Part shown: piece after piece, positions 616 to 29,602 of the stretch | Position numbering within the stretch: position 1 is the first letter of the stretch | Layout of the letters: each line of letters begins with the position of its first letter | NCBI GenBank assembly: GCA_016193315.1 | Contig: JACPSJ010000001.1 | Span: 91,981-155,980, forward strand | Length of the DNA stretch: 64,000 nucleotides | Reading direction: 5' to 3' | Source: Candidatus Kerfeldbacteria bacterium | GTDB taxonomy: Bacteria > Patescibacteriota > Patescibacteriia > SBBC01 > CAIJZX01 | Program-made: the position numbers and the translations under genes | Notes under the pieces: generated by a model | Database searches by the model: none | Seen by the model: only the letters and a program-made list of their open reading frames with translations | What the model was told of the DNA's origin: nothing

Positions 616-942
616 TTACAACGCCGGTGTGGCCGGAGCAGCCGGCGCGGGCATTGACCCGCCGGTCATCTTTAAAGCATCCTTCAATGATTTTCCGGCC
701 TTAAACTTCGGCACCGTCACCGCCGGAATCTGTATCTTCTCACCGGGTTTCTGCGGGTTGACGCCCATCCGGGCCTCGCGCTTCTTGGTCATGAAAGTCC
801 CGAAGCCGGTGAGAGTGACTTCGCCGCCAGTCTTGAGCGTCTCGGTCACGATCTCTTCAAACGTGTTGAGCATATCTTCCGCTTGCTTCTTCGTGACGCC
901 GAGTTTCTCGGCCATCTTTTCCGCTAATTCGATTTTGTTCAT
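616..942 (-). CDS. hup: HU family DNA-binding protein
   Basis: 108 aa; MNKIELAEKMAEKLGVTKKQAE...FGTF...ARMGVNPQ is a typical HU/IHF signature. Strong RBS GGAGGTGA upstream of the ATG at 942. Confidence 0.9.
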   Translation of the reverse strand: MNKIELAEKMAEKLGVTKKQAEDMLNTFEEIVTETLKTGGEVTLTGFGTFMTKKREARMGVNPQKPGEKIQIPAVTVPKFKAGKSLKDALKMTGGSMPAPAAPATPAL

Positions 943-972
943 CCTCTCACCTCCTTCCAGGAATCTTGTTGA

Positions 973-1761
973 TTAGACTTCTATCTCGTGGTAGATACGT
1001 TCGATCTTAGTCGTCCGTCGCTCGGTGACCGTGGCGACCAACCCGTTGATCGCTACTAGTCCGTGTTCGGGGATGTCGAATGGACTCCGTTCGTCAGTCA
1101 AGAATCGGGCGATGGCCATGTCTTTGTCGACGCCGAGCGACGAATCCCGCAGGCCGACCATACCGACATCGGTCATATACCCGGTCCCGCCGGGCAAGAT
1201 CCGCGCGTCGGCCGTTGGGATGTGAGTGTGCGTGCCAACTACCAAGCTAACTTGTCCGTCAAGAAACCACCCCATGGCCACCTTCTCGCTCGTCGCCTCG
1301 GCATGGACATCAACGACGATCGCGTCGACATCCTGAGGTAAACGTGGCAACCCCTCTTTCATCACCCGAAAGAGACTATCCACAGGTTCAAAGTGCATGG
1401 CGTACTGACCCAGCAAGTTTATCACATGGACCCTTTTTTGGCCAAAGGTAAAGGTTTTTTGACCCTGGCCGGGCATGGTAGCCGGAATGTTCAGCGGCCG
1501 CACCAAAATGGTCGACGGCTCAGCCAGGAGTTCGCTTGCTTCCGGTTTGACAAAGAGGTGATCGCCGCCGGTGCCAATATCGACTCCGGCGACGACGATT
1601 TCCTGAAGCGTGCTGCGAGTTACTCCTTTACCGTGAGCCAGGTTTTCGACGTTGGCAATGACCACGTCGACGCCAAAGCGCCGCCGCAAGCCGGGCAGTA
1701 CTTTTTGGAGCGCCCGCCGGCCGGGTTTGCCGACGATGTCGCCCAGGAAAAGGATTTTCAC
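973..1761 (-). CDS. ymdB: YmdB-like 2',3'-cyclic-nucleotide 2'-phosphodiesterase (metallophosphoesterase, TIGR00282 family)
   Basis: 262 aa. N-terminal MKILFLGDIVGKPGR with GDH and GTHTH motifs typical of the YmdB calcineurin-like fold. GTG start. Immediately downstream of rny, as in Bacillus. Confidence 0.85.
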   Translation of the reverse strand: MKILFLGDIVGKPGRRALQKVLPGLRRRFGVDVVIANVENLAHGKGVTRSTLQEIVVAGVDIGTGGDHLFVKPEASELLAEPSTILVRPLNIPATMPGQGQKTFTFGQKRVHVINLLGQYAMHFEPVDSLFRVMKEGLPRLPQDVDAIVVDVHAEATSEKVAMGWFLDGQVSLVVGTHTHIPTADARILPGGTGYMTDVGMVGLRDSSLGVDKDMAIARFLTDERSPFDIPEHGLVAINGLVATVTERRTTKIERIYHEIEV

Positions 1762-1830
1762 GAGGAAAATCCTTTTCCTGCCCCAGCCCCAACCCCTCCC
1801 CTGGAAGGGGAGGGGCGGTCGGGAGGGGTG

Positions 1831-3399
1831 CTATCGAGCATACTGAACGACACGCTTTTCCCTGACCACCATCACCTTGATCTCACCTGGATACTGCATT
1901 TCCTTCTCGATTCGGGCTGCGATCTCCTGCGCCATCTTCATGGCCGCAAAGTCGTCTATCTGCTCGGGCTTGACGAAGACCCGGACTTCTCGTCCGGCTT
2001 GGATGGCGAAGGCCCGCTCGACGCCGGCATATGACTTGGCAATAGTTTCCAGTTCATTGAGTCGCTGGACGTAGTTCTCATACGTCCCCTTGCGGGCGCC
2101 TGGCCGAGCGCCAGACAAAGCATCGGCCGATTTGACTACTGCCTGTTCGACGGTCTGCGGGATGTCCTCGTGGTGGGCGATGGCCATCTGCGCAATGTCC
2201 TCGGGCAGGCCGTACTTCCTCATGATTTCGTAGCCGATCTGGGTGTGGGCGCCCTGGACTTCGTGGTCAATGGCCTTGCCGATATCGTGGAGCAAGCCGC
2301 CTTTCTTGGCGACGTTGACGTTGGCCCCGAGTTCCTCGGCGATGAGACCAGATAACAACCCGACTTCCACGGCGTGCTGGAGCTGGTTTTGGCCGTAGCT
2401 GGTTCGGTACTTCAGGCGCCCGAGAAGTTGCAGCAGCCGTGGATCGAGGCCGGTCACGCCGACTTCATACGCCGCTTGCTCGCCAGCCTTCTTCATTTCG
2501 CTGGCCATTTCTTTCTTGATCTGCTCAATCGTTTCTTCGATCCGGCCGGGATGAATGCGACCGTCAACCATCAGTTTTTCCAACACCCGCTTAGCCAGGT
2601 GGCGACGGACAAGGTTGAAACCGGAGATGATGATCGACTCCGGGGTTTCGTCAATGATGATTTCTACGCCGGTCAAGTTCTCGAGGGCCTTGATGTTCCG
2701 CCCCTCCTTGCCGATGATCCGACCCTTCATTTCCTCGTTCGGCAAATCGACGACCGTGGTGTTCGATTCGGCCGACATCGGCGAGGCCAACCGCTGCATG
2801 GCGGTCGCCAGTATTTTTCGAGTTTCCGTTTCGATCTGTTCCTCGGCCGTCTGTTGCAATTTTCGGAGACGGGCCAGGAGTTCTTCCTTGGCCCGCAACT
2901 CAGCGTTTTCCATGAGTGTCCGTCGCGCCTCATCCATTGATAACTCAGCTACCCTTTCCAGTTTCCGCAGCTGTTCTTCTCGTATTTTTTGAATTTCCTC
3001 TTTCAGTTGGTCGAGCCGGGCCGACTTGTCACCAGCCTCCTTCTGTTTCTGCTCGAGCTCGAGCAACTTGGCGTCGAACAGCGACTCGCGTTTTTCCAGA
3101 CGATTCTGGAGGTGGTTCAGCTCAGCCCGACGCGTCACCTCCTCCTGCTTGGCATCGTCAGCCACTTTCAAAGCCTGATCTTTGGCTTTGATCAGCAATT
3201 CTCGTTCTTTGTTCCGGGCCTCGGCAATGATGGCCCGGGCTTTGGCTTCAGCCGACTGGGCTTCGCGGATGGCCCAGGCGCGGCGAAGAAAATATCCGGC
3301 GATAATGCCAGCCGGGATGCCGACCAGCGCAATCAGTGCCCATAAAACGGTGATGGACATACGGTACGGATGGTAAGTCAGTAAAGCCAACACCATCAA
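1831..3399 (-). CDS. rny: ribonuclease Y (N-terminal TM helix, coiled coil, KH and HD domains)
   Basis: 522 aa. TM segment at the N-terminus, a long coiled coil, a KH motif (IIGKEGRNIKALE) and an HD motif (LLHDIGK). The exact start is uncertain; an alternative ATG lies at ~3360. Confidence 0.9.
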   Translation of the reverse strand: MMVLALLTYHPYRMSITVLWALIALVGIPAGIIAGYFLRRAWAIREAQSAEAKARAIIAEARNKERELLIKAKDQALKVADDAKQEEVTRRAELNHLQNRLEKRESLFDAKLLELEQKQKEAGDKSARLDQLKEEIQKIREEQLRKLERVAELSMDEARRTLMENAELRAKEELLARLRKLQQTAEEQIETETRKILATAMQRLASPMSAESNTTVVDLPNEEMKGRIIGKEGRNIKALENLTGVEIIIDETPESIIISGFNLVRRHLAKRVLEKLMVDGRIHPGRIEETIEQIKKEMASEMKKAGEQAAYEVGVTGLDPRLLQLLGRLKYRTSYGQNQLQHAVEVGLLSGLIAEELGANVNVAKKGGLLHDIGKAIDHEVQGAHTQIGYEIMRKYGLPEDIAQMAIAHHEDIPQTVEQAVVKSADALSGARPGARKGTYENYVQRLNELETIAKSYAGVERAFAIQAGREVRVFVKPEQIDDFAAMKMAQEIAARIEKEMQYPGEIKVMVVREKRVVQYAR

Positions 3400-11524: not shown

Positions 11525-11581
11525 CGTCAGAGCCCGGAAAGAATACGGAAAAAAGCGCTGATTGTCAATCCCGTTAGAGTC

Positions 11582-11622
11582 AAAAATATTCCTGAGACAT
11601 CATGACTCAATGAATGTCTCAG
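11582..11622 (-). terminator. rho-independent terminator of the 11685..13847 gene
   Basis: On the minus strand: CTGAGACAT-N13-ATGTCTCAG hairpin followed by AATATTTTT. Confidence 0.55.
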
Positions 11623-11684
11623 ACAGAAAAAGCCGGTCTATAATCTTCTGTGTCTCGCGACGCTAGCGGGATTGGCGTCTACTG

Positions 11685-15663: not shown

Positions 15664-16283
15664 TGACTCCGATGCTCAGTGTTGAGAAAAACGTGGCTAT
15701 TGTACGCTGTGCAGGCTCGGCTGTCAACGAAATTTTGTGCCGAAAAAAGGTTGGCTTAGGAAAGTAACCAATGTTTTGCTGTGACTCGCACTAGTGTATG
15801 ACTTTCATTTAGCTGCCAGTAGACTTCTCCGACGCCGGTACTCACGACATCAGAAAGCATCGGATTAACAAGCTCAGAATATTTATTGGGGCAATGAGGG
15901 GTTCGGCCGCCAAGTTCGCATTAGGGAAAAGCAAATGCACAATAACTTCGATACTGTATGGTAGTTAGAGCGATTGGAACAGGATTGTCGTCTGATGTCA
16001 AGGTAAGTGTACTTTCGGAGTGTCGCATAGTCAGGTAAACTAGGCGCTGCATGGCAGTGGACAACATCAAACAAGACCTTATAAGGCTGCTGATCATTTC
16101 AGTCTTTCTAGTGGCAGCATTCATTAGTTTGAAAATCGTAGACAGCCACACTAGTAGAATTGATCAAGTTGGCAGGACCCTGTGGGAAAGGGTGGTTGAT
16201 GAGAAATCAGGGAGATAACATTTTGCGACACTATGTTTTCAATACGATAAAAATGGGTCTTAGGATTTATAAAGCACGATTGC

Positions 16284-16357
16284 GCCCCTGTAGTTCAATT
16301 GGATAGAACGGCCCCGTCCTAAGGGGCAAATCCTGGTTCAAGTCCAGGTAGGGGCAA
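16284..16357 (+). tRNA. tRNA-Arg (anticodon CCT)
   Basis: Cloverleaf built by hand: acceptor GCCCCTG/TAGGGGC, anticodon stem GCCCC/GGGGC, loop GTCCTAA. CCA not encoded. End coordinate is approximate (+/-2 nt). Confidence 0.75.
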
Positions 16358-16439
16358 AGCAAATGCGTATCTAAGACTCGTGTTTATCAGCACTGACGGG
16401 ATATAAATTGTCTGTAGACTTGCGTCCCGCGCCAATTTT

Positions 16440-16512
16440 GGGCCGTTAGCTCAGTTGGTAGAGCACTTCCATGGCATGGAAGGGGTCAGGAGTTCGAGTC
16501 TCCTACGGTCCA
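16440..16512 (+). tRNA. tRNA-Ala (anticodon GGC)
   Basis: Acceptor GGGCCGT/ACGGTCC with the G3:U70 Ala identity pair. Anticodon stem CTTCC/GGAAG, loop ATGGCAT. Confidence 0.85.
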
Positions 16513-16696
16513 GAATTGCGGCGGGAAGGCGACCGGTTCCACCCCGGTATGTTCCAGCAATGGCTCGGAAAGGTAAGGACTTTAGAGTCCAAACGGTCGA
16601 AAGCAGACACGACGTTCTTCCTATCGAGTTAGAACGTGATAAGGTTTCCAATGGTAATAACATAGATAATGCCATCCAAATGAGTAATTTTTTAGA

Positions 16697-16776
16697 TGTT
16701 CCACGAGGAACAATCAGGTATTAGGAGATGTTCCACGAGGAACAATCGCAAAAACGAAAATGTTCCACGAGGAACA
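16697..16776. promoter_or_regulatory. tandem array of three perfect 16-bp palindromes TGTTCCACGAGGAACA (20-nt conserved unit ATGTTCCACGAGGAACAATC/ATT) at exactly 32-bp spacing
   Basis: Copies at 16697-16712, 16729-16744 and 16761-16776. The first two share 20 identical nt. The third abuts the -35 of the promoter at 16777. Confidence 0.6.
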
Positions 16777-16805
16777 TTGACAAGAGAAAGGTAAAGTGTT
16801 ATAGT
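16777..16805 (+). promoter_or_regulatory. near-consensus sigma70 promoter, TTGACA-17-TATAGT
   Basis: TTGACA at 16777-82, a 17-nt spacer, TATAGT at 16800-05. No CDS downstream; the transcript would enter the tRNA-Ala fragment cluster. Confidence 0.5.
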
Positions 16806-16950
16806 ATGGGGAGTTCTCATTGATGACTCTTTGAATCAAGGTAATTTGCATAGTATCGCATTCGTACTCTCAAAAGCTGGGGATGTAGTTCACCCGTAAT
16901 TTCCTAGAGGGCGGGCAATGGCCGGGCATCTCATTCGTCCCCCACCATTT

Positions 16951-16990
16951 GGGCTCATAGCTCAATTGGTAGAGAACTGCATTCGACCAG
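16951..16990 (+). pseudogene. 5'-half tRNA-Ala-like fragment (acceptor + D arm + anticodon 5' stem, no T arm)
   Basis: GGGCTCATAGCTCAATTGGTAGAGAACTGCATTCGACC parallels tRNA-Ala(CGC) 17001.. through the anticodon loop, then diverges. Confidence 0.5.
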
Positions 16991-17000
16991 TACCTTTTCC

Positions 17001-17073
17001 GGGCCGTTAGCTCAGCTGGTAGAGCGCTGCATTCGCATTGCAGAGGTCAGCGGTTCGAATCCGCTACGGTCCA
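17001..17073 (+). tRNA. tRNA-Ala (anticodon CGC)
   Basis: Acceptor GGGCCGT/ACGGTCC (G3:U70). Anticodon stem CTGCA/TGCAG, loop TTCGCAT. Confidence 0.85.
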
Positions 17074-17079
17074 AAAAAG

Positions 17080-17240
17080 GTGCTGGACGGGGTTGGGGGT
17101 TCAAATCCCTCATCTCCACCAAACACAGGCAAGCAGGCGGGGCGCCGCAGTAGCATTGCGGAGTTGGCCGGTTCGATTGCGGCTGGGTCCAAATGGTGGT
17201 GTTTAGAGCTTCAGGGTTCAAATCGGCTAGACCCGCGGAC
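17080..17240 (+). repeat. three degenerate tRNA 3'-end (T-arm + acceptor) fragments in tandem
   Basis: GGGGGTTCAAATCCCTCATCTCCACCA; GGTTCGATTGCGGCTGGGTCCA (compare Ala 3' end GGTTCGAATCCGCTACGGTCCA); GGGTTCAAATCGGCTAGACCCG. Confidence 0.45.
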
Positions 17241-17254
17241 TATTTTCTGAAATC

Positions 17255-18088
17255 ATGGAGAAATTATTCATCAAGAATCGTCATAATCAGAAGTTAGCCG
17301 TTGTAGTTGAGAAAAGGCCGAGCCAAGCAGGGCTTGCTTTTGTCATGCACGGGCAGAGCGGATTTAAGGAACAACCCCACGTTCGAACGTTTATTGATGC
17401 ATTCCTAGAAAAAGGGTTTACGGTCGTCAGTTTTGATGTTGCAAACACCATTGGAGAGAGCGAAGGCAACGCGTCAGACGCAACCATCACGAGTTATTAC
17501 GAGGACTTAGTGGATGTTGTGAAATGGTCTGAATCACAAGAATGGTACGAAGAACCATTTGCTCTTGCTGGGCATAGCCTAGGAGGTATTTGTAGTGCTT
17601 TGTACGCGGAGAACCACCCCTCCAAAGTTAAGGCACTTGCGCCTATATCAACAGTTGTGTCGGGAAAACTAAGCTATGAAGCCCATCCGAAAGAAGAACT
17701 CAAAGAATGGAAGCGTACCGGGTGGCAAATAAAGCACAGTAAATCCAAGCCTGGCGTCACAATACGACTTCCTTGGTCAAATATGGAAGATCGTCTGAAA
17801 TACGATTTACTAAAAAAAGCGGGTCAGCTTACAATGCCAGTTTTGTTAATAGTTGGAGAAAAAGATGACGGGACTCCACCGAAACACCAAAAACTACTCT
17901 TTGATGCAATTCCGGGCAACAAAGAGCTTCATGTCATCAGGGATGCGCCACACACTTTTCGAGAAAAGGCACAGCTAGATGAGATTAAATATATATTTCT
18001 GAAGTGGATCGACAAAGTGAAAGCATTTGCCGCGAAAGAAAAATCGAATAAGATTGTTTCCCACGGCTTCGGTGGCGGAAAAACTTGA
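17255..18088 (+). CDS. alpha/beta-hydrolase fold protein (AT-rich, probably horizontally acquired)
   Basis: 277 aa. Nucleophile elbow GHSLGG. Visibly lower GC than the flanking sequence. Confidence 0.75.
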   Translation: MEKLFIKNRHNQKLAVVVEKRPSQAGLAFVMHGQSGFKEQPHVRTFIDAFLEKGFTVVSFDVANTIGESEGNASDATITSYYEDLVDVVKWSESQEWYEEPFALAGHSLGGICSALYAENHPSKVKALAPISTVVSGKLSYEAHPKEELKEWKRTGWQIKHSKSKPGVTIRLPWSNMEDRLKYDLLKKAGQLTMPVLLIVGEKDDGTPPKHQKLLFDAIPGNKELHVIRDAPHTFREKAQLDEIKYIFLKWIDKVKAFAAKEKSNKIVSHGFGGGKT

Positions 18089-18217: not shown

Positions 18218-18331
18218 GACTCAACCCCGTTAGCAGTGGCCGAAACGCGCTCTCTGAAAAAGGCAACGATTCTCGCACCATCTAACACTTTGACGGAAAC
18301 CTCCGCACTTCCACTTCTAACGGGGTTGACA
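18218..18331. repeat. inverted-repeat pair CAACCCCGTTAG ... CTAACGGGGTTGACA; the right arm supplies the -35 of the CsoR-like gene promoter
   Basis: Left arm 18222-18237, right arm 18308-18331. The same motif recurs at 29482-29602 and at 11552-11575. Confidence 0.4.
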
Positions 18332-18332
18332 A

Positions 18333-18349
18333 ATACCCCCTGGGGGTAT
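18333..18349. promoter_or_regulatory. perfect 17-bp palindrome ATACCCCCTGGGGGTAT between -35 (TTGACA 18326-31) and -10; a CsoR-type operator candidate
   Basis: GC-rich TACCC...GGGTA inverted repeats are the known operator type for the CsoR family. It is positioned inside the promoter spacer of the CsoR-like gene. Confidence 0.5.
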
Positions 18350-18360
18350 ATGCTGTGTAT

Positions 18361-18612
18361 ATGCGCCGCGCGTCACGGACTATCAGTGCTAGAATTCACC
18401 GCCTCATTGGCCAGCTGCGGGCGGTCGAGGGGATGATTGTACGGAAACGCTCGTGCACGGAGATCCTCTATCAGGTCAGCGCGGTGCGGGCCGGTATCGA
18501 GCAGGTAGCGAACATCCTGTTCTTACGGGAACTCGAGCGGCTAGCCAAGACGAAGAGATGGCGCGACCCGGATTTGGCCAAGTTAATTCAATTGTACTCT
18601 CAGACCACCTAG
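18361..18612 (+). CDS. CsoR/RcnR/FrmR-family (DUF156) transcriptional repressor; probably a leaderless mRNA
   Basis: ORF track 18355 (GTG) ..18612. The ATG at 18361 lies ~7 nt after the -10. RIHRLIGQLRAVEGMIVRKRSCTEILYQVSAVRAGIEQV matches the CsoR helix bundle. Only the first Cys ligand is conserved; the His/second Cys positions are Leu/Arg. Confidence 0.7.
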   Translation: MRRASRTISARIHRLIGQLRAVEGMIVRKRSCTEILYQVSAVRAGIEQVANILFLRELERLAKTKRWRDPDLAKLIQLYSQTT

Positions 18613-18616
18613 ACTG

Positions 18617-18940
18617 ATGCCCAAAGTCATTGTTAACGACAATAATTTTTCGCCCGAGGTATTGCAAGAAGCAAATCGCCCGGTGCTAGTCGATTTTTGG
18701 GCTACCTGGTGCTATCCCTGCCGCGTTCAGGGGCCGATCGTCGATGAGCTAGCCAAAGAGTTCGGCGATAAGGTGAAGGTCGCCAAGTTAGAAGTCGATG
18801 ACAGCCCGACGACGACCATGAAGTATGGCGTCTTGTCAATTCCGACGCTGGCCATCTTTAAGGCTGGCAAACTCGTTTGGCAAGGGGTCGGGGTCCATCA
18901 GAAAAACGCGCTGGCCGCCGAGCTACAGAAACACTTATGA
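18617..18940 (+). CDS. trxA: thioredoxin with non-canonical CYPC active site
   Basis: 107 aa. DFWATWCYPCRVQGPIVDEL...GVLSIPTLAIFKAGK is a thioredoxin fold. Canonical WCGPC is WCYPC here. Confidence 0.85.
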   Translation: MPKVIVNDNNFSPEVLQEANRPVLVDFWATWCYPCRVQGPIVDELAKEFGDKVKVAKLEVDDSPTTTMKYGVLSIPTLAIFKAGKLVWQGVGVHQKNALAAELQKHL

Positions 18941-18970
18941 CGTCGGGCGATTGACCGGGCCGAGACAGCG

Positions 18971-20245
18971 GTGAAGGATAATCCATTCGAACATGCGCTG
19001 GTGCAGTTGCGTCGAGCCGCGGAACTAGGAAACATAGATCCGACGATGATCCGCCGCCTCGAGCTGCCAGAGCGGACAATCGAAGTCAGCATTCCGGTGA
19101 CGATGGACGATGGATCGCTTCGCGTCTTCCCTGGGTGGCGCGTCCAGTACAACAACGCCCGCGGACCGTACAAGGGCGGCATTCGCTATCATCCGCAGAC
19201 GAACCCCGACGAAATCAAGGCGCTGGCTTTTTGGATGACCATCAAGTGCGCGCTGCTGAATCTGCCCTATGGCGGCGGCAAAGGGGGGGTGACCGTTGAC
19301 CCGCGACTGCTGAGTCGCGGTGAACTCGAACGTCTGTCTCGTGGCTGGGTGAGGGCAATGTTCCCCAATCTTGGGCCGCAGGTTGATGTCCCGGCGCCCG
19401 ACGTTTACACCAACCCGCAGATCATGGCTTGGATGACCGATGAGTATTCACGACTGGCCGGTCGACCGACGCCGGCCGCGTTTACCGGCAAGCCGATTGA
19501 GGCCGGGGGATCTGCCGGTCGAGAGTTTTCAACCGGCCAGGGCGGGCTCGATGTGCTGACGGCGCTGATGTCGAAACTTGGCCGCGCGCCAAAAGACACC
19601 ACCGTCGCCGTTCAGGGCTTTGGTAATGTTGGCTACCACCTGGCTCGTTTGCTGCAGCGGGCCGGCTATCGCATCGTCGCCTTGTCTGATTCCAAGGGTG
19701 GCATTGAGGACAAGCGTCGTCTCGGCATGGAACCGGAGCACGTCATGACTTCAAAGCAGGCGAAGGGCATGATCGACGGGATGTATTGCATCGGCTCAGT
19801 CTGTGACTTTACCAATTATCAAGCTATTACCAATAAACAGTTGCTGGCCCTCCCGGTCGATATCCTTGTTCCGGCGGCCCTGGAAGACGCCATCACCGAA
19901 CAGAATGCCGGCGCGGTTCAGGCCAAGATCATTTTGGAAATGGCGAATGGGGCGGTGACCCCGGAGGCGGAGAACGTTTTGGTTCAGCGGCAGATAACGG
20001 TTGTGCCGGATATTCTGGCCAACGCTGGCGGCGTCGTTGGATCATATTTCGAATGGCAACAGAATTTGGCTAGCGAGCATTGGACCGAAGCTGAAGTACT
20101 TCAGCGTTTACAGTCGATGATGACCCAGGCGTTCGAACAAACCTGGTCAAAGGCCCAACAGCACCAAGTTGGCTTTCGTCTCGGCGCCTATCTGGTGGCG
20201 CTCGGGCGATTGGCGGAGGCGATGAAGCTTGACCACCCCCGCTAG
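18971..20245 (+). CDS. gdhA: glutamate dehydrogenase (Glu/Leu/Phe/Val dehydrogenase family)
   Basis: 424 aa. KGGIRYHP...PYGGGKGG catalytic motif; NAD(P)-binding GFGNVG. Confidence 0.9.
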   Translation: MKDNPFEHALVQLRRAAELGNIDPTMIRRLELPERTIEVSIPVTMDDGSLRVFPGWRVQYNNARGPYKGGIRYHPQTNPDEIKALAFWMTIKCALLNLPYGGGKGGVTVDPRLLSRGELERLSRGWVRAMFPNLGPQVDVPAPDVYTNPQIMAWMTDEYSRLAGRPTPAAFTGKPIEAGGSAGREFSTGQGGLDVLTALMSKLGRAPKDTTVAVQGFGNVGYHLARLLQRAGYRIVALSDSKGGIEDKRRLGMEPEHVMTSKQAKGMIDGMYCIGSVCDFTNYQAITNKQLLALPVDILVPAALEDAITEQNAGAVQAKIILEMANGAVTPEAENVLVQRQITVVPDILANAGGVVGSYFEWQQNLASEHWTEAEVLQRLQSMMTQAFEQTWSKAQQHQVGFRLGAYLVALGRLAEAMKLDHPR

Positions 20246-26467: not shown

Positions 26468-27215
26468 GCGCGATCATGAATTGACGCGGTTCTTTAGAAA
26501 TACTCCAAATGAGATCAAAGATACTGCGGAAGGCCTGGGAAATCGAAGGATCGGTGATCACGACCAGATAACGCCCGGCCATAGAATAAAGCCCGATGTT
26601 CTGTCCCCACATAGAAATATCAATGTCATATTTCATGTTCGGCGGCATGATCCGGATCCGGCGGTTTTTAGAGTTGTATTTTTTGGCATAGACGATATCG
26701 GCCGGGGTGGCAGTCACAATTTCCCAGGCTTGCTTGATTTCCCCCCGTCTGAGTTGTTGTTCGTAGGCAGCTAAGAGATCTCCGTACAGCTCAGTCAGAT
26801 TCTTTATATGGGAAATGAACCGATTCTCCGGGTGGTGGAACGTCGCCTCCATCCAGACTCTGCTGATATCTTCGACTCGATCGTAATAACGAATTTGCGG
26901 CTTGGTGCCGCCGCGATTTTCCAGGGCTCGTAACATCGGCAGTATTTCCAAGGCTACCTTTTCCTGCTGTTGGGCCGAGGCGAAGAGCTTCTGCGGTGAC
27001 TCAGGTATGTAGACGGTTTTCTTTCCCTCAAATGCTAAACCAGCCAGTTGTTTTCGCCGTAAAGATTCTAAGTCAAGATAGATGGTCGGTCGCTTCAGAC
27101 CGGTTTTTTTCGATAAGGACAGCGGCGTACCACGTCCCAGTTCAAGCAGGGAAGTGTAAATTCGTGCCTCGCGAGCCGTGAGACTGAGCTGGGCCAGAGC
27201 GTCATGGATATCCAT
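26445..27215 (-). CDS. TrmB-family transcriptional regulator (paralog of 5233..5982)
   Basis: 256 aa. N-terminal wHTH (LSLTAREARIYTSLLELGRGTPLSLSKKTGLKRPTIY). Confidence 0.6.
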   Translation of the reverse strand: MDIHDALAQLSLTAREARIYTSLLELGRGTPLSLSKKTGLKRPTIYLDLESLRRKQLAGLAFEGKKTVYIPESPQKLFASAQQQEKVALEILPMLRALENRGGTKPQIRYYDRVEDISRVWMEATFHHPENRFISHIKNLTELYGDLLAAYEQQLRRGEIKQAWEIVTATPADIVYAKKYNSKNRRIRIMPPNMKYDIDISMWGQNIGLYSMAGRYLVVITDPSISQAFRSIFDLIWSISKEPRQFMIAPKKPRTA

Positions 27216-29481: not shown

Positions 29482-29602
29482 TGACCCCGTTAGAAGCGGC
29501 TGAGATAAGCTTATGACCAAAAGTCCAATTTTTTTTAAACAACCTGCTTCATCCACAAAAGCTACGACCTATTCCGCTTCTAACGGGATAACGGGGTTGA
29601 CT
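29482..29602. repeat. inverted-repeat pair GTTGACCCCGTTAGAAGCGG ... CCGCTTCTAACGGG(ATAA)CGGGGTTGAC flanking ~75 bp of AT-rich DNA
   Basis: Same terminal motif as at 18218-18331. The right arm ends in TTGACT, which can serve as the -35 for the downstream gene. Confidence 0.4.

Follow-up and report, generated by a model that had tools for sequence, protein, structure and literature searches.

A predicted one-cysteine thiol switch of the CsoR family upstream of thioredoxin in Candidatus Kerfeldbacteria

The 64-kb stretch of DNA analysed herein (the window) derives from a Candidatus Kerfeldbacteria metagenome-assembled genome (MAG; Patescibacteria, or candidate phyla radiation, CPR), and harbours a gene for an 83-aa CsoR/RcnR-family repressor followed by genes for a thioredoxin (Trx) and a glutamate dehydrogenase (GDH). 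This family is the textbook case of a scaffold that has been retuned to copper, nickel or cobalt, formaldehyde and persulfide by way of a four-residue fingerprint, of which the csoR-like protein retains a single cysteine. Our best reading, held with moderate confidence, is that csoR-like, trx and gdh form a probably leaderless operon under a one-cysteine thiol switch derived from a metal sensor. That the protein represses its own operon, trx included, by way of a palindrome within the promoter, we regard as highly likely; that it is a non-metal thiol sensor appears probable. In principle such a finding is unsurprising, but it is clean and strongly conserved. Members of the CPR possess very few transcription factors, cannot as yet be cultivated by themselves, and are all but uncharted in their stress regulation. 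The locus offers a testable regulator–operator–regulon triplet for Patescibacteria, amongst very few such predictions.

The csoR-like locus and its promoter

The features of the locus are collected in Table 1.

Table 1. Features of the csoR-like/trx/gdh locus, with positions given within the window
Feature	Position	Strand	Details
-35 hexamer TTGACA	18326..18331	+	Consensus promoter scan; predicted operon promoter
Operator, perfect palindrome ATACCCCC-T-GGGGGTAT = ATACCCCCTGGGGGTAT	18333..18349	strandless	Predicted; fills the -35/-10 spacer
-10 hexamer TATGCT	18349..18354	+	Promoter scan; shares the last base of the operator
CsoR/RcnR-family repressor, 83 aa, single Cys (C32), fingerprint x-C-E-L	18361..18612	+	PF02583; predicted leaderless start at 18361
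Thioredoxin, 107 aa, active site WCYPC	18617..18940	+	PF00085, TIGR01068; 4 nt past the repressor stop codon
Glutamate dehydrogenase, gdh	18971..20245	+	PF00208 and PF02812; 30 nt past trx

An independent promoter scan returned TTGACA-17-TATGCT, with 10 of 12 consensus matches and its end at 18354. The palindrome is 17 bp in length (8+1+8, with no mismatch) and is separated by 1 base from TTGACA, with 6 bases (gtgtat) lying between TATGCT and the ATG. Both the scan and direct reading of the sequence therefore bear out the original prediction, which had placed a palindrome exactly within the promoter spacer, between a -35 at 18326 and a -10 at about 18349. Allowing up to 3 mismatches, the palindrome has this single match across the window, against a chance expectation of 0.09. 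No further copies, as might point to a larger regulon, occur at this threshold in the window, nor in 148 kb of related sequence, where the operator is present once per locus and nowhere else.

In its design, with a G/C tract held between the arms of an ATAC/GTAT inverted repeat, the element is a predicted CsoR/RcnR-type site; a G/C tract with TAC/GTA repeats is the recognition theme typical of CsoR–RcnR sites (PMC10318464). The earlier assignment of this GC-rich inverted repeat to the CsoR family is thus in keeping with the known type of site, and the element recurs in all 16 related loci described below. With the operator filling the whole spacer, occupancy by the repressor and binding by RNA polymerase should exclude each other. 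An alternative role for the palindrome as an RNA hairpin or terminator was rejected, as it is positioned in the promoter spacer and upstream of the predicted transcription start.

Because the -10 hexamer ends 6 bases before the ATG, transcription would be expected to start at +7, which is the A of this codon, and no Shine–Dalgarno-like motif is found upstream of it. A GTG at 18355 was considered as an alternative start and rejected, since homologues keep the sequence MRRASRT from the ATG onwards, with the upstream bases diverging. A leaderless start had been proposed for this gene, and the layout itself holds, with the 6-nt gap recurring in 10 of the 16 loci; it looks, however, to be genome-wide rather than peculiar to the csoR-like gene. 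Shine–Dalgarno-like motifs precede only 8 of the 56 long open reading frames (ORFs) of the window. A TANNNT motif ends 5–8 nt before the start in 8 of the 56, where approximately 2 would be expected by our estimate from base composition, and some of these also possess a good -35 (TTGACA 17 nt upstream); examples are the starts at 27215 (-), 51501 (+), 52050 (+), 43670 (-) and 59943 (+). Leaderless mRNAs are thus probably widespread in this Kerfeldbacteria genome, the layout being a genomic habit rather than specific to one gene.

The CsoR-like protein

The product of the csoR-like gene matches PF02583 (CsoR/RcnR, DUF156) over residues 7–65, its 48 bits lying well above the gathering threshold of 22.8 (E=1.6e-12), and is identical to MBI2984109.1 of a Candidatus Kerfeldbacteria MAG, which is annotated as a 'metal-sensitive transcriptional regulator'. 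An AlphaFold2 model built on 28 homologues (predicted local distance difference test score, pLDDT, 89) contains three helices, at residues 8–27, 32–64 and 69–82. In a Foldseek comparison of this model with the PDB, ranks 1–18 are all CsoR-family structures (InrS, CstR and FrmR, along with Geobacillus, Streptomyces and M. tuberculosis CsoR; template modelling score, TM, ≤0.83). Signature and fold therefore agree with the family identity originally proposed.

The W-X-Y-Z ligand positions were assigned from ungapped HMMER alignments, both single-sequence and profile, against four references: Geobacillus CsoR (...LLERHANHC), InrS (...LDDHMNEC), CsoR 6AHX (...FADHMESC) and S. pneumoniae CstR (...ITENLTEC). 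Cys32 is located at X, aligned with the Cys of all four references, and thereby retains the trait common to the CsoR/RcnR superfamily; it sits at the N-terminus of helix α2, two residues past an invariant Arg (R30). Glu57 occupies Y, the position of the Cu-binding His, and Leu61 occupies Z, the position of the second Cys, whilst the N-terminus, MRRASRT, is without His, Cys or Pro at W. The original prediction, that the first Cys of the set is kept and that the His and second Cys are missing, is thus upheld; the residues that it placed there, Leu and Arg, are in fact Glu57 and Leu61.

None of the established fingerprints describes the protein. The canonical Cys-His-Cys set did not reappear upon alignment to the family references: the x-C-H-C set of Cu(I)-CsoR is absent, and no homologue has His or Cys at Y or Z. 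With x-C-E-L in its place, the protein is not a likely Cu(I) sensor, as had been anticipated. The N-terminal His of the RcnR/InrS fingerprint (H-C-H-H or H-C-H-C) is lacking; the FrmR fingerprint, P-C-H-x (Pro2 and Cys35), is not present, the window protein and the majority of homologues having Arg at position 2; and the x-C-x-C of CstR, with its two Cys, is replaced by a single Cys and Leu61 at Z. Equivalog models for RicR, FrmR and RcnR score only 21–27 bits against cut-offs of 133–175 (FrmR NCBIfam model, 23 versus 133; RcnR, 21 versus 138). The best profile match amongst solved structures is S. pneumoniae CstR (E=8.5e-11), although its lead is marginal, with CsoR and InrS approximately equidistant. 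By sequence, then, the csoR-like protein is a clear member of PF02583 that belongs to none of the named subfamilies, and even if the prediction of a thiol switch should fail, the locus is re-annotated as encoding neither a copper nor a nickel sensor.

Conservation of the regulator and its operator

A word-indexed search of 5.8 billion proteins yielded 28 homologues with 48–65% identity, 23 of which are exactly 83 aa in length (range 76–95). Every one of the 28 possesses exactly one Cys. Residues C32, E57, R30, H13 and G17-Q18-L19 are invariant in the alignment, the N-terminal RRASRT is nearly so, and the residue at Z is hydrophobic in most sequences. The clade is narrow: when 1.84 billion cluster representatives were searched exhaustively by profile, only 4 fell below E=1e-18, beyond which the matches are to the general family, with C-H-C (42) and C-E-C (18) as the commonest fingerprints.

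Sixteen loci of the 83-aa clade were compared, drawn from species-representative genomes, metagenomes and contigs encoding particular homologues, and two more distant relatives (P0029 and P0031; loci L018 and L019) were added; the metagenome scan contributed 3 loci only. The -35 is found at the same place in all 16, reading TTGACN in 14 and TTGCCA and TAGACA once each. It is followed after 0–3 bases, again in 16 of 16, by (T)ATACCCC(C)-N-(G)GGGGTAT, the flanking sequence having diverged, and in 15 loci a TATNNT -10 extends from the last T of the repeat. A check for orthologues lacking the palindrome thus found it upstream of each of them. Locus L002 displays a variant, ATACT-C7-AGTAT, in the style of RcnR and FrmR sites. 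The distance from -10 to ATG is 6 nt in 10 loci and 8–11 nt in the remaining 6, a spacing consistent with a transcription start at the initiation codon itself or no more than a few bases from it. In the more distant relatives the palindrome is kept but shifted, lying just downstream of the -10 in L018, and just upstream of the -35 in L019, where a second, interrupted site lies in the spacer. One apparently operator-less locus, L006, was rejected as such, since its promoter and operator are intact approximately 170 nt upstream; a 161-nt insertion, with inverted ends and flanked by the direct repeat ATGCGT, lies before the ORF.

Full-text literature searching found nothing on this clade, on CsoR-type control of trx or trxB, on one-Cys members or on the family in Patescibacteria, and returned unrelated matches only for a CYPC thioredoxin motif. 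A family-wide network analysis from 2021 delineates Cu, Ni/Co, formaldehyde and persulfide classes alongside uncharacterised clusters, and describes no one-Cys, Trx-linked class. The regulon of the csoR-like clade (trx/trxB) is accordingly one not described for the CsoR family.

The predicted thioredoxin operon

The window thioredoxin (MBI2984110.1) scores 90 bits with PF00085 and 111 bits with TIGR01068 (cut-off 96.8), and keeps both Cys and the Pro of the WCGPC active site, with Tyr in place of Gly. The original prediction had singled out this non-canonical WCYPC motif; it is indeed present, but its Tyr is not conserved, the variable residue in the clade being Tyr in 9 cases, Thr in 3, His in 2 and Gln in 1. 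It is never Gly there, and the distant relatives have the canonical Gly. In every locus that extends far enough, those of P0029 and P0031 included, trx is located directly 3′ of the regulator (4–18 nt), and its co-transcription with the repressor is predicted. No promoter- or terminator-like site was detected between trx and gdh by consensus scan, and in 12 related loci gdh is likewise found after trx or trxB; on the strength of this conserved synteny, gdh is the probable last gene of the operon.

A trxB-like gene follows trx in 11 of the 16 full-length loci, and gdh comes next, with a Nudix gene in between in L006 and L013; the distant L018 also has a TrxB-like gene downstream of the regulator. 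The products are flavoproteins of 320–340 aa that match TIGR01292 at E=5e-96 (approximately 320 bits, just under the equivalog cut-off of 343), and in 10 of the 11 loci they contain a redox motif of the form CATC, CASC or CPIC. In the window, L002 and L003, gdh immediately follows trx, and the trxB position is cleanly empty (a gap of 30 nt, 18941–18970, as opposed to 3590–4573 in L004 and 1034–2017 in L013), such that trxB has been lost from this position in these three.

Copper genes (copA/copZ), rcnA, frmA and cst-type sulfur genes are adjacent to the regulator in none of approximately 18 loci. An HMA/cupredoxin pair occurs in L014 only, on the opposite strand and beyond gdh. With trx, and usually trxB, as neighbours, and never copper genes, the locus has the character of a redox or thiol-stress module rather than of a copper-efflux regulon, as first suggested.

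A separate arrangement was noted in L009 (Levilactobacillus cerevisiae, 673–3249), in which the stop codon of a canonical WCGPC thioredoxin gene is overlapped by the gene for a distant PF02583 protein that resembles CstR and has two Cys (x-C-x-C). The gene before this trx encodes a 468-aa protein, the N-terminus of which resembles, by eye, FAD-dependent pyridine nucleotide-disulfide oxidoreductases of the NADH-oxidase/CoA-disulfide-reductase type. This suggests that Trx linkage of CsoR-family thiol sensors extends beyond Patescibacteria.

A proposed one-cysteine thiol switch and its parallels

As the only conserved partners of the regulator are enzymes that reduce Cys adducts, the locus is best read as being under a one-cysteine thiol switch. 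In the mechanism that we propose, the reduced repressor, presumably a tetramer like its relatives, would bind ATACCCCC-N-GGGGGTAT and exclude RNA polymerase from the spacer. Cys32 is the counterpart of the reactive 'attacking' Cys of CstR and CsoR, and its oxidation, S-thiolation, persulfidation or alkylation would lower affinity for DNA, leading to derepression of trx (and trxB). Since there is no second Cys to resolve an adduct, the modification of Cys32 would persist; the induced thioredoxin system could then reduce it and restore repression, the net result being a homeostatic negative feedback on the disulfide-reducing capacity of the cell. More speculatively, the conserved gdh might supply NAD(P)H for thioredoxin reductase (TrxR).

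Feedback of this kind has well-known parallels. In the thiol-switch loops of RsrA–sigmaR–trxBA (Streptomyces), Spx–trxA/trxB (Bacillus) and OxyR–grxA/trxC (E. coli), the oxidised sensor raises Trx/TrxR and is thereafter re-reduced, and in 1-Cys OhrR the lone sensing Cys is resolved by an external thiol. The logic proposed for the csoR-like trx loop resembles these, although the regulators concerned belong to unrelated families with different DNA-binding modes, and are activators, anti-sigma factors or MarR repressors. To our knowledge, no loop of the RsrA, Spx, OxyR or OhrR type has been described in Patescibacteria.

Within the CsoR family, a further parallel is TTHA1953, a CsoR-like repressor of the sox cluster of Thermus thermophilus that loses DNA binding upon thiol oxidation (PMC10318464). 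It is unresponsive to Cu, Ni and Co, and its most derepressed target is the thioredoxin-like soxW (PMC10318464). It differs from the csoR-like protein in having two Cys (C39 and C68) that form disulfide-linked dimers, in an operator without a G/C tract, and in a regulon for periplasmic sulfur oxidation rather than for the cytoplasmic Trx/TrxR system.

Several observations weigh against the thiol-switch model. No trxB is found in the 64-kb window by tblastn, and the 120 best database relatives of the operon-type TrxB do not include any protein of the 857-kb contig to which the window belongs, so that the reductase of the feedback loop is unaccounted for in this genome. The TrxB-like proteins of L008 (1223–2212) and L018 (794–1510) are devoid of CxxC, with GVSYYASGDA and GVTMNATLDA in place of G(V/I)SYCATCDA, and are therefore not conventional thioredoxin reductases. 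The 161-nt insertion of L006 separates promoter from ORF, demonstrating that the regulator can be disrupted in nature. Invariant Cys32 and Glu57, along with the conserved MRRASRT, could form an unconventional metal or small-molecule site. Finally, DNA binding, oligomeric state and the reactivity of Cys32 are all inferred, as are the chemistry and its reversal by Trx, and the choice of inducer (peroxide, disulfide stress, sulfane sulfur or electrophile) is not decidable from sequence alone.

A bolder version of the one-cysteine switch would make the clade a distinct functional class of CsoR proteins, in which a minimal sensor without an internal resolving residue reads the redox state of the Trx pool directly (via a Cys32–Trx mixed disulfide, or via Trx-dependent reduction of an adduct) and controls the Trx/TrxR module, with its NAD(P)H-producing GDH, of Kerfeldbacteria and related Patescibacteria. 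We consider this rather unlikely; if true, it would be the first redox regulator to be predicted for genomes of this reduced kind. In either version, a fingerprint cut back to a single attacking Cys, coupled to Trx, provides a natural 'minimal' switch with which to ask what the resolving residue contributes, and a 17-bp operator and an 83-aa protein are of a size suited to direct in vitro work.

Alternative explanations

Of the alternatives, the one that survives best is that the switch responds specifically to sulfane sulfur (persulfide or polysulfide), in the manner of CstR, with Cys32 becoming persulfidated and the non-canonical Trx, together with TrxR, acting as the depersulfidase that resets it; we judge this possible but doubtful. 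Kerfeldbacteria are known from anoxic groundwater, where sulfide is plausible. The closest solved relative by profile is a CstR, as given above, x-C-E-C and x-C-x-C proteins predominate amongst the nearest outgroups by sequence, and a passage of PMC6196236 indicates that protein persulfides of S. aureus are reduced by thioredoxin-like proteins. CstR proteins of S. aureus, E. faecalis and S. pneumoniae (PDB 7MQ1-3) share with the csoR-like protein the three-helix fold, a Cys at the N-terminus of α2 that is reactive in CstR and putatively so here, the thiol-based, non-metal sensing predicted herein, the replacement of His at Y by a non-ligand (Asn in CstR, Glu57 in our protein), and an operator in which a G/C tract has AT-rich inverted repeat flanks. 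CstR attacks with the thiol of its N-terminal Cys, which is highly reactive, and resolution falls to the C-terminal Cys, 7–8.6 Å away on the other protomer, with Asn55 of the Y position wedged between the two (PMC8643695). CstR cluster 10, for its part, keeps only the N-terminal Cys invariant (PMC8643695), which again favours a persulfide sensor. Conversely, the chemistry of characterised CstR proteins needs Cys–Cys′ di-, tri- and tetrasulfide bridges between protomers, made through the resolving Cys at Z, and these are impossible with one Cys and the Leu or other hydrophobic residue that the clade has at this position. CstR regulons comprise sulfurtransferases, persulfide dioxygenase and CoA-persulfide reductase, as opposed to trx, trxB and gdh, and no gene for a sulfurtransferase, persulfide dioxygenase, sulfide:quinone oxidoreductase (SQR), CoA-persulfide reductase or TauE lies beside the regulator in approximately 18 loci.

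A second possibility, which we think improbable, is that the protein is still a metal sensor, binding for instance Zn(II), Fe(II), Ni(II) or Co(II) at an unconventional site composed of the Cys32 thiolate, the Glu57′ carboxylate and the N-terminal amine or backbone, with the trx genes forming part of a metal-stress response. The database annotation points this way, as does the conservation both of E57 at the His position and of the N-terminal heptapeptide; the metal site of RcnR, moreover, involves the N-terminus and the X-position Cys. A single substitution is enough to give FrmR metal sensing, according to a passage of PMC4528141. The Cu(I) CsoR proteins of M. tuberculosis, B. subtilis, Geobacillus and S. 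lividans are similar to the csoR-like protein in Pfam family, fold, X-position Cys and operator style, the latter including an ATACCC...GGGTAT-type site within their own promoter that implies autoregulation. Yet the csoR-like protein has Glu57 where they have His (Y) and Leu61 where they have Cys (Z), the soft ligands beyond Cys32 are gone, with W, Y and Z lacking His or Cys, and in place of copA/copZ or any other conserved metal exporter or chaperone gene, the Trx system is the sole conserved partner.

It is likewise improbable, in our view, that the protein is a ligand-independent autorepressor which sets the dosage of the trx operon, with Cys32 kept for inherited structural reasons. Negative autoregulation alone would account for an operator placed in the promoter of the regulator gene, and the sequence offers no proof of signal sensing; however, Cys32 and the nearby R30 are invariant across 48–65% identity whilst the other Cys and His ligands of the family have been lost, and the exclusive linkage of the Trx system to a thiol-bearing regulator in approximately 18 loci is hard to explain without thiol chemistry.

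Least probable of all, and in our opinion very much so, is an FrmR-like aldehyde sensor, in which a cross-linking reaction with formaldehyde or some other electrophile would join Cys32 to the N-terminal amine of a neighbouring protomer: FrmR (which, with RcnR, forms cluster 2 of the sequence similarity network) needs only its X-position Cys, the N-terminus here is strongly conserved, a minority of proteins (L008, L012 and P0026) begin MP(R)RASRT and would expose an N-terminal Pro after Met removal, two homologues are named 'FrmR family' by the Joint Genome Institute (JGI), and the L002 operator is of the 'TACT-G/C tract-AGTA' type of FrmR and RcnR, but the window protein and most homologues start M-R-R without Pro2, an Arg at position 2 blocks removal of Met, His3 is missing and the His of FrmR at Y is Glu, the distance from N-terminus to Cys is 3 residues shorter than in FrmR, equivalog scores fall far under the cut-offs, rcnA is not a neighbour, and neither frmA nor any other aldehyde dehydrogenase gene is a neighbour in any locus.

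Further observations on the locus

A repeated intergenic element of approximately 100 nt is present in the window at 18221–18329, 29486–29587 and 11566–11674, and also in L003 (2863–2965) and L006 (2838–3000, 161 nt). Conserved inverted repeats, CCCGTTAG...CTAACGGG, form its ends and enclose a non-conserved interior. Between copies, the stem-distal bases covary (AGTGG/CCACT, AGGCG/CGCCT, AAGCGG/CCGCTT and AGATT/AATCT), and the first copy terminates right at the -35 box of the csoR-like promoter, with an RNA fold z-score of -4.1. The L003 copy is flanked by the direct repeat GTTGAC, and that of L006 is inserted exactly at the regulator start codon, between the leaderless promoter and the ORF. 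A comparison with Rfam identified tRNAs only, with no match for the inverted-repeat element upstream of csoR-like. In its sequence features, the element looks like a mobile element akin to miniature inverted-repeat transposable elements (MITEs).

The MAGs that contain L004, L006 and L008 display Kerfeldbacteria-like synteny and are titled 'uncultured Gammaproteobacteria bacterium', which is probably a taxonomic mislabel. Lastly, an alpha/beta-hydrolase gene (17255–18088) is situated between a tRNA cluster and the csoR-like promoter, in a stretch of low GC content (0.467 for 16001–18000, versus approximately 0.57 elsewhere); none of the related loci examined contains its counterpart, which points to a possible insertion beside the tRNA genes.

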